A stretch of DNA of 64,000 nucleotides from Arenicellales bacterium (GCA_965203865.1 OZ241916.1:934884-998883); one strand, 5' to 3'; shown: positions 15,848 through 58,161, counted from the first letter of the stretch. The notes: generated by a model from the letters alone, not told the origin. Program-made: numbers and translations.

Positions 15848-16873
15848 TTACCGATATGGAGGAGCGTAAATCAAGCCGCCATCTGTCCAGAGTGCGTTAA
15901 GTCCGCGCTCCAAACCAATGTCAGTATTCACCCCGAGATAAGTCTCGAAAATTTCTCCATAGTTTCCGACTGCAGAAAGTACGTTAACCACCCAGTTTTT
16001 ATCCAAACCGAGCATGGCTCCGTATTCACCTTCAGTGCCGAACATTCTGTTCAGTTCTGCATCTTTTCCGGCTTCCATTGCCATTTCTTTGACATTTGCC
16101 TGGGTTATGCCTTTTTCTTCGGCAATAATCAGGACATTGAGGACCCATCGAACAATATCTGCCCAATCGTCATCGCCATGTCGTACCAATGGACCCAGAG
16201 GTTCTTTCGAGATAACTTCTGGCAGTACTACGTGGTCGTTCGGATTGTCCAGCGAGGCACGAGTTGCCGCCAGTCCGGAGCGGTCTGTTGTATAAACATC
16301 GCAACGTCCTGCAAGATAATTTTGCCGTGCTTCTGCATTGGTTTCGATTGTAACTGGCTCGTAAGACATATTGTTGGAACGGAAGTAGTCCGCGAGGTTC
16401 AACTCAGTCGTTGTTCCAGTTTGAATACAGATGGATGCCCCGTTCAGTTCTGTGGCACTTTTTACACCCAGGGAAGAAGGAACCATAAAGCCCTGACCGT
16501 CGTAATAGTTAACCCCAAGAAACGTGAGTTTCAGGTCGACATCACGACTGTACGTCCATGTGGTATTACGAGACAATAAATCAACTTCACCTGATTTAAG
16601 CGCTTCAAAACGAGTTTTACCAGTTAAATTGGTGTACTTTACTTTTGAGGCATCACCGAAGACGGCTGCAGCTACTGCTTCACAAATAGCTACGTCAAAG
16701 CCTTTCCAGTTGCCAGCGTCGTCTGCGAATGCAAAGCCGACCAAGCCGGTGTTAATACCGCATTGAACAAATCCCTTTGCCTTTACGTCATCCATAGTAG
16801 CGGCACTTGCAGCACCGTAAATAGATAGACTCAATATTGCTGCAAACACAGCTACGAGTTTCTTACTCTTCAT
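15848..16873 (-). CDS. aapJ: general L-amino-acid ABC substrate-binding protein
   Basis: 341 aa with a signal peptide (MKSKKLVAVFAAILSLSIYGAASA) and a family-3 SBP body. It is the first gene of the JQMP order. Confidence 0.85.
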   Translation of the reverse strand: MKSKKLVAVFAAILSLSIYGAASAATMDDVKAKGFVQCGINTGLVGFAFADDAGNWKGFDVAICEAVAAAVFGDASKVKYTNLTGKTRFEALKSGEVDLLSRNTTWTYSRDVDLKLTFLGVNYYDGQGFMVPSSLGVKSATELNGASICIQTGTTTELNLADYFRSNNMSYEPVTIETNAEARQNYLAGRCDVYTTDRSGLAATRASLDNPNDHVVLPEVISKEPLGPLVRHGDDDWADIVRWVLNVLIIAEEKGITQANVKEMAMEAGKDAELNRMFGTEGEYGAMLGLDKNWVVNVLSAVGNYGEIFETYLGVNTDIGLERGLNALWTDGGLIYAPPYR

Positions 16874-17099
16874 AGTTCTACCTCCAAGTAGAATAAACGT
16901 TTACAATAACGAGTATGAAAATAGTATTGTCAATTTTGGTGTTGATTTATCTGTATGACGGATAAAACAACTCCTGACTGACTGGATAGAAAAGTTACTA
17001 TAACTTAATCCTTCATCGAAATAAAAATATTTTTGTTGTTTTTGAATGATTGAAATTTGAAAAAATTTAATTGTCCGGCATTAATTGTAACAATTGATA

Positions 17100-18427
17100 G
17101 GGAATTATATCCAATGATAACCAGACCATTGGATACTGTTCTGCCCGGTAGGAGGTCCTCCCGAAGACGACTGGATTATCCTCTTCGACGAACCTTCCTG
17201 ATTCTCAATTCTCCCCGGAGCATCGGGCCTCCCGCCCAGACTGCCGGTCAAGCCGGCACGGAGAATATTCTTGGCCGCATTCACATCGCGATCCTCTTCA
17301 TGACCGCAATGACCGCAGCGATACGTGCGTTCCTTCAAGCCAATCTTTACATTGGGTTTCCCGAAGCACACTGAACAGGTTTGCGATGTATTATGCGGCG
17401 GTACTTTCAGCAGCATGCCGCCGGCGCTTTCGGCCTTGTAGGACAGCATGTGCATCAATCCATTCCATTTCTGCTCCAGCATGGAGCGATTCAAGCCTTT
17501 CTTTGATCTTCTGTTTCCGGTCTTCGTCATGCTGCGGATATTCAGATCTTCCACTATGAGATTGGAACTGGCTTCCTTGATGATCCTTGCAGACAGTTCA
17601 TGCAGTCTGCCGTGCTCTCTTTCCTTCAGTCTCTGGCATTCTTTGGACAACTGAAGCACCGTCTTCTTTCTGCTGCTCGAACCTGGCCTGGCTCGCGCCG
17701 CCTTTCTTTGCAGATGCTTCTTCCTGTTCAGCTTCTTCTTGCGCCGGTCAAGCGACTCCCCTCGAACGACAACTCCATTCGACATTGCCACCACGCTGGA
17801 TATGCCCACGTCGATTCCAATCGGGGCGCGTTCATCGACCACATTGTCGCCGGCAGGTATTTCGGTTGTCAGCTGAACCTTCACTCGCCGCGCCGTCTTC
17901 ACGACTCGCAGCATCTTCACCCGGCCTTGCAACTTGCCTTTGAAGCGAAGCGTCCCTACTCCCTTTATCGATACCGTGTTCCAATGCCGCCGGCACTTGA
18001 TATGGAACGAATCCGTCTCGAACGACCTGACTTTCCTGCGACTCGACTTGAACTTCGGAAAGCCCGGCTTTTCGCCATTTCTCACTCAACGGTAGAAATT
18101 CTGAAACGCCTTGTCAAGCCGCATCAATATGCTTCTCTGCGATGACACATGATAACCACTGAACCAGCAGTCGTCCGCACGTACAAGCGTCAGGGATTTG
18201 AATTGATCGAACTTCGTTATGCCAACGCCGCATTTCTCATACGCATTTATCCTCTCTTCCAAGGCACAGTTCCACAACAGCGTCTGTTGATTCAAAAAGT
18301 CATCCAGATGCTCGTGTGCCGACCTGGAGAGCTTTGCAGTGTGGGTGAAAGTGCGAATTGTTGCGGGGGTGTTCACAATCCGCCCATTATACCAAACCAT
18401 CTTTGGTTATTACTGTATATAATTCCC
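17100..18427 (-). mobile_element. solo TnpB element (IS200/IS605-superfamily, IS1341-like, no tnpA)
   Basis: The segment is visibly G+C-richer than both flanks. It is bounded by 13-bp inverted repeats: gggaattatatcc at 17100-17112 and gtatataattccc at 18415-18427 (12/13 match). A subterminal hairpin tccaatg-N10-cattgga lies at 17110-17133. Confidence 0.6.
17105..18400 (-). pseudogene. tnpB: tnpB (RNA-guided endonuclease family) interrupted by one in-frame TGA
   Basis: ORFs of 104 aa and 326 aa share one frame and are separated only by TGA at 18088-18086 (..FQNFYR*VRNGEKPGFPKFKS). RuvC-I IGIDVGIS, RuvC-II IVEDLNI, the zinc finger CSVC..CGHCGH and RuvC-III DRDVNAAKNI are all intact. Confidence 0.8.
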
Positions 18428-18487
18428 AATTAATACTAAATCCGCTATCGTCTTCATGTGCCGGGCAGCAGGGTGTAAGCCATCTGA

Positions 18488-19462
18488 TCAGTTTGATTCC
18501 AAGGCTTCTGCCGCTTGCTGGTCTGCAAGATAAGAAGACCGAACCATGGGACCTGAAGCGACATGTGCAAACCCCATTTCCTCGCCGATTTGCTTCAATT
18601 TGCCAAAAGCTTCCAGCGATACATACTGTTCCACGGGCAGATGGTACCGGCTTGGCTGAAGATACTGTCCCAAAGTCAGGATTTTGACCTCATGGTCGCG
18701 CAGGTCTCTCATCACAGCAACTATTTCGTCCAATGATTCACCGATTCCGAGCATAAGTCCCGCTTTGGTAGGCACATTCGGATGACGCTCCCCAAACTGC
18801 CTGAGCAGTTCCAGCGAATGCTTGTAGTCCGACCCGGGTCGAACCTTGCGATAAAGCCGGGGAACGGTTTCGAGATTGTGGCTGAACACATCCGGAGGAG
18901 CAGCTGAGAGACAATCAAGTGCAGTTTCCATGCGAGACCGAAAATCCGGGGTCAGGATTTCAATTTTGGTTTGCGGTGCTGTGATTCTGATTTGCCGAAC
19001 ACAATCGGCGAAATGCGCGGCACCGCCGTCTCTGAGGTCGTCTCGGTCCACCGAAGTAACCACAACAAAATTCAGGCCCATTTGCCTTACTGTTTTGGCC
19101 AGGTTCAACGGCTCATTCGAGTCTGGTGCCAGAGGTCGCCCGTGAGCTACATCGCAGAACGGGCATCTTCGGGTGCAAATATCCCCTAAAATCATAAAAG
19201 TGGCTGTTCCTCGTGCAAAGCATTCCCCGAGATTTGGGCAGGATGCTTCTTCACACACTGTATGAAGCTGGTTTTCGCGCAAAATTTCCTTGAGCCGGTA
19301 CACTTCTGGCGTGCCCGGAAATTTCGAGCGAATCCAGTAAGGCTTCTTTAATCTTTGATGGGGTTCCTGCGGTGCAATCTTGACAGGAATTCTCGCTGTC
19401 TTTTCAGCACCGCGAAGCTTCACTCCGGGCTGTGGCGATGATGTGGCTGCTGTGTTCATCAC
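18488..19462 (-). CDS. lipA: lipoyl synthase
   Basis: [12 protein letters not shown] and CTRRCPFC radical-SAM and auxiliary cluster motifs. Confidence 0.92.
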
Positions 19463-56724: not shown

Positions 56725-58161
56725 GGTTAAGTCTTAAAATTCCTGTAAAAGTCTAATTGGGGGGATCGAGAGGTCCTCTGTGCGATTACAATTTAATAAT
56801 TTCACATTTTTACAACAAAAGAATCGAGGAGGACCTCGCGATGAGTAGAATGATAAGTCCAAGCCAGGAGAAAAAGCAAGAGCTGAATGAGATGATTGAG
56901 AATGGTTTCGCTGGCGAAGGGGATGTTTTTCGGGAGTTTATCAAATTGACAGTGGAAAGCGTGTTTCAGCAGGCGCTGGAAGATGAGCAGAGTGAGTTTT
57001 TGGATCGAGGGCGCTACCAGCGCAAGTCGGAGCCGTCGACGGTGCACCGCAACGGCTACGAACCGGGGCATTTGAAGACTGCGGAGGGAGTGATGCAAGT
57101 GAAGTTGCCGCAGGTTCGCGGTCTGGGCGAGCCGTATCGCTCGCGGTTGTGGAGCGAGATGCCGCGTACCAGCGAATCGCTGAAGTCGCTGGTGGTGGAG
57201 ATGTATGTGAACGGCATGTCGACCCGCGACATTGAGCATTCGATGGAGGCGGCGCTGGGCGAGTTTTCGTTGTCGAAGAGTACCGTCAGTCGCCTGTGCG
57301 AGTCGCTGAGCGAGGACTACGAGCGTTTCAAGGAGCGCGACTTGAGTGGCTACGACGTGGCGTATTTGTTTGTGGATGCGGTGTACGAGCCGTTGCGTCG
57401 TCACGGCACCCGCAGCGGTGTTCTGTGCTGCTGGGCGATTTGCAGCGATGGCAGTCGGGTGCTGCTGGACCTGACCTTGGCCAACAGCGAGAGCAAGGTA
57501 TCGGTGATTGAGTTTTTTCAAGGGATGATTCGCCGGGGTCTTCAGCCGCCGCTGACGGTGACCACCGATGGTGCCGGGGGACTGATGGCGGCGGTGGAGG
57601 AGACGTGGCCGCGCACCTTGCGAGTGCGCTGCTGGTTTCACAAGATGCAGAATCTGCGGCAGAAGGTTCCGCCGAGCTTGTGGCCGGAATTTCGGCATCG
57701 GGTGACCGACTTTCGGGATGCACCGGATGAAGCCGAGGCTCGTCGCCGGCTGGAATCCATCCAGGCCGACTATGGCCGCGAGTTGCCCGAAGCCTTGCGT
57801 TGCCTAACCGACGACCTGGAAGCTTCGATGAACCATTTGGAGGTTCCGCCGCGGCACCGGCAGAATGTTCGCACGGTGAATCTGGTGGAGCGCAGCTTCG
57901 TAGAGGAGCGCCGACGAACCAAGGTGATCCCGCATCTGTGGGGCGAAAGAGATCTGACCAAGCTGGTGTATTCGGTGCTGATCCGATTGAGCGAACGCTG
58001 GTGCAAGCGCCGGTACTCGGAATCGGAAGAATGGCAGATCCGAGAGCTGCGCATGCGACTTTATCCAGAGCAGGAGGCGAGAAAACCCGTGCCAAGAACC
58101 AGAACTCGCAGAAGTGCGGCGAAAGCCGCCTAGACTTTTACAGGAAATTAGAGACTTGACC
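56725..58161 (+). mobile_element. IS256-family insertion sequence
   Basis: 1437 bp. The 31-bp imperfect terminal inverted repeats are ggttaagtcttaaaattcctgtaaaagtcta (56725-56755) and the reverse complement of 58131-58161 (27/31 match). One transposase ORF; its stop codon lies inside the right IR. Confidence 0.85.
56841..58133 (+). CDS. IS256/Mutator-family transposase
   Basis: 430 aa from the ATG at 56841, which follows a gaggagg RBS. The N-terminal FREFIKLTVESVFQQALEDEQSEFL..RNGYEPGHLKT is characteristic of the family. Confidence 0.85.
   Translation: MSRMISPSQEKKQELNEMIENGFAGEGDVFREFIKLTVESVFQQALEDEQSEFLDRGRYQRKSEPSTVHRNGYEPGHLKTAEGVMQVKLPQVRGLGEPYRSRLWSEMPRTSESLKSLVVEMYVNGMSTRDIEHSMEAALGEFSLSKSTVSRLCESLSEDYERFKERDLSGYDVAYLFVDAVYEPLRRHGTRSGVLCCWAICSDGSRVLLDLTLANSESKVSVIEFFQGMIRRGLQPPLTVTTDGAGGLMAAVEETWPRTLRVRCWFHKMQNLRQKVPPSLWPEFRHRVTDFRDAPDEAEARRRLESIQADYGRELPEALRCLTDDLEASMNHLEVPPRHRQNVRTVNLVERSFVEERRRTKVIPHLWGERDLTKLVYSVLIRLSERWCKRRYSESEEWQIRELRMRLYPEQEARKPVPRTRTRRSAAKAA

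Follow-up and report, generated by a model that had tools for sequence, protein, structure and literature searches.

The closest described counterparts of the locus analysed here are the ISDra2-type TnpB/OMEGA systems of IS200/IS605 elements, among them the IS1341-type elements with a solo tnpB. Nearly all known bacterial tnpB elements are mobilised by a Y1 or a serine TnpA, and cut-and-paste-type movement is rare among them. IS200/IS605 and IS607 elements have neither terminal inverted repeats (TIRs) nor target duplications (PMC13565253; PMC6188088). Six DDE-transposase-linked branches of TnpB (DDE-1 to DDE-6), all with inverted terminal repeats, are described by Altae-Tran et al. 2023 (PMC10691335), as are solo TnpBs with the same ends as the transposase-bearing ones; a 2026 review names IS630, ISL2 and IS1031 as partner families of DDE-linked TnpB and calls the cases rare and uncharacterised (PMC13565253). 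In eukaryotes and their viruses, Fanzor1 and Fanzor2*, TnpB homologs that often stand alone, are carried by cut-and-paste transposons with TIRs and duplications, and the TIRs of Fanzor elements form part of the guide-RNA scaffold (PMC10711439).

With the ISDra2-type and IS1341-type systems our locus shares the protein family, the domain order, the DRDxN RuvC-III motif and the zinc finger, as well as the solo, compact layout of ~1.3 kb and a scaffold, predicted here, that takes in the 3' part of the gene and stops where the element does. It differs from them in having 24-bp TIRs and an 8-bp duplication where IS200/IS605 elements have neither, and in a predicted omegaRNA hairpin that doubles as TIR; moreover, IS200/IS605 elements insert beside a fixed 4-5-nt motif. 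With the DDE-1 to DDE-6 branches it has in common a bacterial tnpB that is flanked by inverted terminal repeats and whose 3' end lies <250 bp from the element end. Its duplication of 8 bp is longer than those of the partner families named above, and no transposase-bearing member of its family was found in the searches described below. DDE-associated TnpB with inverted ends is thus already known, and the family described below is a variant of this rare kind. It resembles the Fanzors in having a TnpB-type gene alone in a transposon with TIRs and target duplications and in a predicted scaffold to which the TIR contributes, and is set apart from them by their eukaryotic or viral hosts and larger proteins.

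In the window, by which we mean the whole stretch of 64,000 nucleotides that was analysed, the element lies between lipA (19462..18488) and a gene for an ABC-transporter substrate-binding protein (16873..15848), both on the minus strand, and its ends are arranged as follows:

17100..18427, minus strand: the complete insertion sequence (1,328 bp), non-autonomous, with tnpB and an omegaRNA-like region
18404..18427, minus strand: left-end TIR, 5' of tnpB, GGGAATTATATACAGTAATAACCA, with the tip GGGAATTATATAC
17100..17123, minus strand: right-end TIR, which takes in the final codons of tnpB together with its stop (17107-17105)
18428..18435, minus strand: target-site duplication (8 bp), left copy, which reads TATTAATT on the minus strand
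17092..17099, minus strand: right copy of the target-site duplication, TATCAATT, with one T-to-C change relative to TATTAATT

These boundaries could be placed exactly by means of a relative in which the site is empty. The contig L096, which carries P0256 from the lipA 90%-identity cluster, matches the window at ~92% identity along 9 kb; in it lipA directly precedes the binding-protein gene, and a single TATTAATT stands between the two. The BLAST alignment breaks exactly at 18427 and 17099, the element boundaries, into two blocks (L096 1-5033 corresponding to window 23435-18427, and L096 5025-8972 to window 17099-13142), whose overlap consists of the duplicated bases. The L096 junction reads ...GGATTTAG TATTAATT GTTACAATT..., and the window has at this point TATTAATT, the 1,328-bp element and TATCAATT. 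The initial annotation, made without database searches, had delimited a 1,328-bp element by 13-bp terminal inverted repeats and had seen no target duplication. The element was borne out by the empty site and by the 12 further copies that the proposed search for other copies brought in, all of which put the ends exactly at the repeats; the case that the annotation itself had raised, ends lying elsewhere and repeats that are host sequence, is contradicted by the same evidence. The 13-mers GGGAATTATATCC (17100-17112) and GTATATAATTCCC (18415-18427), the sole zero-mismatch matches in the 64-kb window, do mark real transposon ends, but the true repeat length is 24 bp, and an 8-bp target-site duplication flanks the element. 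The arms match at 21/24 positions in the window copy and perfectly, at 24/24, in L001, L003 and L005; the 31-nt arms reported by an inverted-repeat tool run into the target duplication, the part that belongs to the element being 24 bp. Among six close copies, nucleotide conservation begins at GGGAATT and stops at AATTCCC exactly. The tnpB stop codon, TAA at 17107-17105, lies within the repeat at 17100-17123, the one that had been called the left repeat, as first noted. The description of the element as G+C-rich holds weakly, since its G+C content of 51.8% compares with 47.0% for the window and is rich only beside the 37% of the adjoining spacer.

The same ends recur in a family of elements. 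Relatives came from GTDB genomes (L001-L006) and from ENA assemblies (L007 and L088-L093), 13 elements in all, with TnpBs 35-96% identical to that of the window copy. All of them carry a TIR of ~24 bp with the tip (G/A)GGAATTAT(A/G)TA, and the tip GGGAATTATATAC is common to family members down to 35% TnpB identity. The copies are 1,241-1,361 bp long, occupy unrelated sites among housekeeping genes and have tnpB as their only gene, from which it follows that the family is non-autonomous; the window element, with lipA and the ABC-transporter binding protein as neighbours, has no room for a second gene and, as had been annotated, no tnpA. Several copies occur per genome, four of them in OZ241380.1 and at least four in the genome of the window, where three intact siblings (P0258-P0260, 431 aa each) lie on the same 3,147,672-bp chromosome as the window copy; intact siblings range in size from 423 to 431 aa. 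The TnpB lineage occurs in Arenicellales, in Dadabacteria (L005, TnpB 38% identical) and in one prophage. Nested insertions are also seen in the family: an IS110 element in the TIR of L090 and a tandem left end in L091.

A tblastn search against PLSDB returned only relatives of <=35% identity. Profile-based locus searches yielded 80 metagenome loci (<=33% identity) and 20 viral-contig loci, none of them with the family TIR, and these were used as controls. The GGGCATTATATGC repeats of L086 proved to be an unrelated tandem repeat. Exact look-ups of the window GcvH and of the paralog P0010 gave no record, and literature searches on the TIR sequence and on TnpB with IS1595 gave nothing relevant.

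We found that the duplication, too, is a property of the family. The flanking 8-mers match at >=7/8 positions in 9/13 elements, as against 2/156 cross-element controls that reach 7. In L090 a perfect AAAAATAT/AAAAATAT duplication is restored after removing a 1,573-bp IS110-family insertion from the TIR tip and, with this element counted after the removal, the 8-bp duplication is kept in 10/13 elements; a recognisable duplication is absent in the other three (L004, L005 and L091). Since the 8th position differs in 3 of the 10 duplication-keeping elements, the stagger could be 7-8 bp. Across elements the duplicated 8-mers are variable and AT-rich, and no fixed 4-5-nt target stands beside the left end.

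The gene carried between these ends has the following features:

17105..18400, minus strand: tnpB reading frame, 431 codons from ATG 18400, with the probable true start at GTG 18376 and one interruption
18086..18088, minus strand: in-frame TGA, codon 105 from ATG 18400 and codon 97 from GTG 18376, replacing a near-invariant arginine
18386..18394, minus strand: extended -10-like box TGGTATAAT, read directly, inside the left end and 9 nt upstream of GTG 18376

With its stop masked, the protein scored 80 bits against Pfam PF07282, 39 bits against PF01385 and 209 bits against NCBIfam guided_TnpB (cut-off 100), compared with 168 bits for IS200_TnpB (cut-off 425) and 107 bits for IS607_TnpB (cut-off 350). 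Its closest solved structures are those of ISDra2 TnpB (8H1J, 8BF8/8EXA), with E about 2e-32 over residues 22-378. In agreement with the initial annotation, the 431-codon frame, 18400..17105, is interrupted solely by the TGA at 18088-18086, and the RuvC D/E/D and CxxC..CxxC motifs are preserved: D197, E284 and D372 together with the zinc-finger residues C342/C345/C362/C365 show no variation when the protein is aligned with 13 homologs (A1). The GTG at 18376 is the probable true start, as it aligns with the ATG (MN..) of other copies. The -10-like box is conserved as TG(G/C)TATAAT in L001-L003 and L007 and may act as a promoter; a simple promoter scan, which requires a -35 box, made no call for it.

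The context of the stop is ..FQNFYR*VRNGEKPGFPKFKS. A basic residue had been described as usual at this position, and arginine is indeed present in 12/13 aligned homologs and in 9/9 members of the 90%-identity cluster, eight of which are additional to the aligned P0001 and which include the siblings P0258-P0260. In L007, which is 96% identical and stands at an unrelated site, codon 105 is CGA, as opposed to TGA in the window. The two copies differ at 36/1,328 nt, and their codon differences, 17 synonymous and 18 non-synonymous, point to past purifying selection. The simplest reading is that, of at least four copies, one has acquired a genuine nonsense mutation, the TGA; the change itself is ordinary gene decay and, with its frame interrupted, the window copy is a pseudogene of the family. 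A CGA-to-TGA change had been proposed from the start and is supported by L007. Its being very recent is not supported, because the copy is 4-5% diverged from its intact siblings and one copy of the duplication is already mutated.

It could be argued that the TGA is an assembly or sequencing error, or that it is read through efficiently, and that the window copy still makes an active TnpB. UGA is the leakiest bacterial stop codon, and on alignment to homologs the lesion is single and the catalytic residues are all intact, so that the multiple further inactivating lesions considered in the initial annotation were not encountered. However, for this chromosome the deposited record lists no more than a shortened product of 269 aa, P0008, which indicates that the stop is present in the public assembly; other C-to-T changes at CpG in the window copy, giving R78C, which is private to it, and R136C, fit real decay; and the adjacent lipA terminates in TGA, indicating that TGA is a stop codon in this genome. 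Nor is recoding indicated, since the homologs have arginine, not cysteine or tryptophan, and selenocysteine or a changed genetic code at the TGA was rejected on this ground together with the TGA end of lipA. We consider an error or efficient read-through unlikely.

At its 3' end the gene overlaps a structured region, predicted to be transcribed as follows:

17100..17282, minus strand: structured RNA region, omegaRNA-like, ~183 nt with four helices, overlapping the tnpB 3' end
17108..17135, minus strand: terminal hairpin with the 9-bp stem TATCCAATG/CATTGGATA, the loop and 3' arm of which coincide with the inner part of the right TIR

An omega/reRNA scaffold had been expected at this end, with a covariance or structure search as the proposed check and the lack of a structured RNA as the outcome that would speak against it; a conserved, covarying structure of the predicted RNA was found at 17100..17282. 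RNAalifold, applied to 12 family members, gave three helices, to which the terminal hairpin was added by hand. In alignment A3, 96% of the cells of the 26 pairs are paired, and 7 pairs are compensatory compared with 2.3 +/- 1.0 after shuffling (0/500) and 0-3 in slid controls, the helices tested being partly derived from the same sequences. A covariance model, R1, for which this alignment was used, recovered the whole structure in L005, which had been left out of the model, with 46 bits and E = 6e-11, and in generic TnpB loci it matched the RuvC-III coding stretch only. The single-sequence folding z-score of the region is only -1.67, and an Rfam scan of 16800-18700 gave chance-level matches only. 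A possible pseudoknot, in which the 3' tail AAUUCCC would pair with GGGAGAAUU further upstream, is without covariation support.

The last ~200 nt are the most conserved part of the element, with a mean pairwise identity of 0.94 at element positions 1201-1300. Third-codon identity is 0.90 in the structured region versus 0.73-0.83 elsewhere, and the C-terminal peptide ..QNSIQWSGY(H/Q)CI is retained even in 53%-identical paralogs, a pattern that suggests constraint at the level of DNA or RNA more than at that of the protein. As to the terminal hairpin, which had been annotated with a 7-bp stem at 17110-17133, its presence was corroborated, while its extent had to be revised to 9 pairs at 17108-17135. 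At one pair of this helix (helix 4) A-U, C-G and G-C are all seen, and L093, L005 and L006, in which the inner TIR is different, have a hairpin of different sequence at the same place. The joint difference of inner TIR and hairpin in these three elements suggests that the repeat to which the transposase would bind overlaps in sequence with the RNA scaffold and that the two evolve in concert.

This interlocking arrangement bears on the idea that the TIRs and the duplication come from a host MITE or another insertion sequence, inside which a classical tnpB element landed. Nesting is known in the family, as L090 (IS110 in the TIR) and L091 (tandem left end) exemplify, but in the window element there is no spare sequence between the putative outer and inner elements: on one side, the tnpB stop falls within the right TIR, which also supplies the 3' arm of the conserved hairpin; on the other, only 28 nt separate the probable start, GTG 18376, from the left TIR, whose end lies just after ATG 18400. 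Moreover, the same layout is found at 35-54% TnpB identity, with the inner TIR changing together with the hairpin. Such a nested origin is very unlikely.

TIRs at both ends and a fixed-length duplication with a one-copy empty site, as found here, are the signature of staggered-cut DDE transposition, and the element therefore belongs to a DDE-like class and is not of the IS200/IS605 or IS607 type. The framing of the locus as an IS200/IS605 element with atypical ends consequently had to be given up, for 24-bp TIRs and an 8-bp duplication denote a different transposition class; IS607 elements likewise have no TIRs and no duplication, whereas both are present here. Were it nevertheless an ordinary IS200/IS605 (IS1341-type) solo tnpB moved by a Y1 TnpA, the repeats would be coincidental or would be subterminal hairpins. 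ISDra2 TnpB as the closest solved structure, a hairpin near the right end and the 168 bits for NCBIfam IS200_TnpB would suit such an element, although the score is under the 425-bit cut-off. IS200/IS605 elements, however, have no TIRs or duplications (PMC13565253), whereas here the 24-bp TIR is conserved over 13/13 elements, 8-bp duplications flank 10/13 copies, the empty site has a single 8-mer, and the left-end flank is variable and AT-rich where a fixed tetra- or pentanucleotide would be expected. We regard movement by a Y1 enzyme as extremely unlikely. Nuclease-dead TnpB repressors exist, but a domesticated, non-mobile TnpB derivative of this TldR-like kind, with the repeats as operator sites, deserves next to no credence given that the RuvC triad is intact across the family and that the elements occur at unrelated loci with target duplications and in several copies per genome.

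For a DDE-like element without a transposase gene the question of the partner arises. A transposase-bearing element with the family TIRs was not found, the TIR pattern having 0 matches in JGI metagenome contigs and 0 in IMG/VR, and blastn of the TIR against PLSDB gave one chance match only. The partner families IS630, ISL2 and IS1031 duplicate TA or 2-3 bp of their targets. A G-rich TIR tip and a duplication of 8 bp are what the window family shares with IS1595 and the ISKra4/ISMich2 group: GGGAATTAT fits what we take to be the ISfinder consensus of the ISNwi1 group, 'ggnnatTAT', and ISMich2, of the ISKra4 group, presumably has 'GGG' ends with 8 bp. IS1595 elements make 8-bp duplications, have GG termini and are related to the eukaryotic Merlin (PMC8101967). 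Unlike in that family, an IS1595-type transposase stands neither inside nor beside any copy, DDE_Tnp_IS1595 being absent between the TIRs of every one, and the lineage sampled from the same metagenomes has other ends. An internally deleted IS1595-type relic, detected at a distance of 2.2 kb from L004, matches Zn_ribbon_IS1595 with E = 1e-4 and the tail of DDE_Tnp_IS1595 with E = 0.03. Its lineage was rejected as the partner, as the intact relatives L094 and L095 end in ..ACATGCNTCTAAA.. and not in GGGAATTATAT. The resemblance to IS1595, which consists in the 8-bp duplication and the GG tip, is a lead. The IS256-family element of the window (56725-58161) was also rejected as partner, its TIRs being unrelated.

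Outside the ends, two further features can be proposed:

18436..18438, minus strand: TAG directly 5' of the left duplication, an instance of a one-sided (R/W)-T/A-G motif and a candidate TAM
17080..17099, minus strand: predicted guide segment TATCAATTGTTACAATTAAT, which holds if the scaffold ends at the element boundary

When the flanks of the 13 elements were oriented by the element and aligned, position -9, which immediately precedes the left duplication on its 5' side, was G in 10/13, compared with a flank background of 14% G (binomial tail ~5e-7), and the base at -10 was T in 8/13; in the same 13 elements no mirror signal appeared at +9, after the right duplication copy. A symmetric transposase preference would give a two-sided signal and would not explain a one-sided motif, while one would be expected from a TAM that precedes a target beginning with the duplication; the G, often TG, may be such a TAM. 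The guide position is predicted from the usual layout of TnpB systems and from the abrupt end of conservation behind ...AATTCCC. The scaffold of Fanzor1 is reported to include the duplication, whereas in the window family the flank motif suggests that the guide may start at the duplication.

The best explanation of the locus as a whole, to which we assign a probability of about 0.78, is a non-autonomous TIR-and-duplication element that carries tnpB and an omegaRNA and is presumably moved in trans. It inserted into the spacer between lipA and the ABC-transporter gene, duplicating the 8-bp target TATTAATT. Its sole gene, tnpB, would specify an RNA-guided DNA endonuclease of the ISDra2-like, OMEGA-class kind, and its last ~183 nt the matching omegaRNA scaffold, to whose final hairpin the right TIR lends its inner half. 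A DDE-type transposase encoded elsewhere presumably moves the element in trans, and neither a Y1 (IS200/IS605) nor a serine (IS607) TnpA would be the mover. In intact copies, TnpB and omegaRNA would cut DNA that follows a TAM and matches the sequence outside the right end, that is, the duplication and flank; the cut target would be the unoccupied allele, and cleavage there would help the element to be retained or copied. In the window copy a C-to-T change has turned the arginine codon CGA into TGA, and full-length TnpB would no longer be made. As its ends and RNA region are intact and three intact siblings are present in the genome, this copy can probably still be mobilised and supply guide RNA in trans. 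It is conceivable, though on balance doubtful, that we are dealing with a long-lived TnpB lineage in an 8-bp-duplication cut-and-paste family not before linked to TnpB, with a guide RNA fused to the TIR, (R)TG as the TAM and a guide that begins with the duplication.

The main interest of the locus lies in a tnpB family that rides a TIR-and-duplication transposon, its predicted guide RNA fused to the TIR; the TGA is secondary. Bacterial TnpB is thought to persist by restoring elements that are lost through the scarless excision of IS200/IS605 and IS607. The window family is a clean, multi-copy and recently mobile example of the rarer arrangement, with defined ends, a proven empty site, a predicted TIR-sharing scaffold and a candidate TAM, and its compact intact siblings (423-431 aa) are candidate genome-editing nucleases. 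It could show how a nuclease, a guide and a duplication-making transposase become compatible, the same problem that Fanzor solved in eukaryotes. If the reading as a long-lived lineage were true, the family would parallel, in prokaryotes, the Fanzor1 arrangement and would serve as a test case for RNA-guided homing alongside a transposase whose action results in a double-strand break and a duplication, and possibly also for TnpB biasing where, or in which orientation, an element survives.

We found that the TnpB copy at L004:2974-4286, a member of the same element family on another contig, is clearly decayed: the RuvC-I aspartate of its tnpB was lost through a 48-nt deletion, a CGA-to-TGA stop stands ahead of the second CxxC, one terminal inverted repeat (TIR) is mutated, and no target duplication was found at the flanks of the element. 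L004 thereby illustrates the state of an old dead copy, in contrast to the copy in the window.

Comparison of the window copy with its sibling copies revealed three CpG C-to-T changes in arginine codons (18086-18169; 17993-17995), codons 78 and 136 of tnpB having changed from CGC to TGC and codon 105 from CGA to TGA. The CGA-to-TGA change in L004 is a further one, independent of the window copy, and the pattern is a hint that deamination or methylation may be biased toward CGN arginine codons in these TnpB elements.

At L004:6505-7143, at a distance of 2.2 kb from the decayed L004 copy of TnpB, we observed an internally deleted IS1595-family transposase relic, which has kept the Zn-ribbon and the extreme C-terminus but no longer has the catalytic core. 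On record are four short relatives of about the same length (197-209 aa; 66-100% identical), among them P0241, which is this very ORF as called in OZ241380.1; the proteins P0245 and P0246, of 160 aa, are two further ones. The window itself carries a separate IS256-family insertion sequence (56725-58161) with a 458-aa Transposase_mut ORF (56757-58133, 214 bits) and imperfect TIRs of 31 bp (GGTTAAGTCTTAAAATTCCTGTAAAAGTCTA), which show no relationship to the TnpB-element TIRs; no clear target duplication was seen at this IS256-family element.

At the TnpB insertion in the window, which lies 226 nt upstream of the ABC-transporter binding-protein gene, a promoter-like site extends across the boundary between element and flank (17084-17113, minus strand) and is directed toward that gene. 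It consists of TGGATA, provided by the right TIR, and, 18 nt from it, TACAAT, which lies in the host spacer and has a TG before it. The insertion may have replaced the -35 region of this gene.

In the family member L090, a 1,573-bp IS110-family element (L090:3376-4975; domains DEDD_Tnp_IS110 and Transposase_20) lies within the left-TIR tip and splits it as AAAAATAT GGG / IS / GGAATTATATAG. The 5' non-coding region of this IS110-family element contains GCAGGAATTATATGG, which repeats the target's right half, and this is how a bridge/seek-RNA guide programmed against the TnpB-element TIR would be expected to look.

The member L091 carries the left-end TIR twice in tandem, 41 bp apart (L091:195-260; GGGAATTATATACAATGATAACCA ... 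GGGAATTATATGCAATGAC), before a single tnpB; the extra end has the appearance of a solo TIR or of what is left of a second insertion. The member at L092:2510-3813, whose TnpB is 71% identical to that of the window, resides within a prophage or phage contig, with a large terminase subunit gene on one side and tail sheath genes on the other; such a location offers a possible route of spread between hosts.
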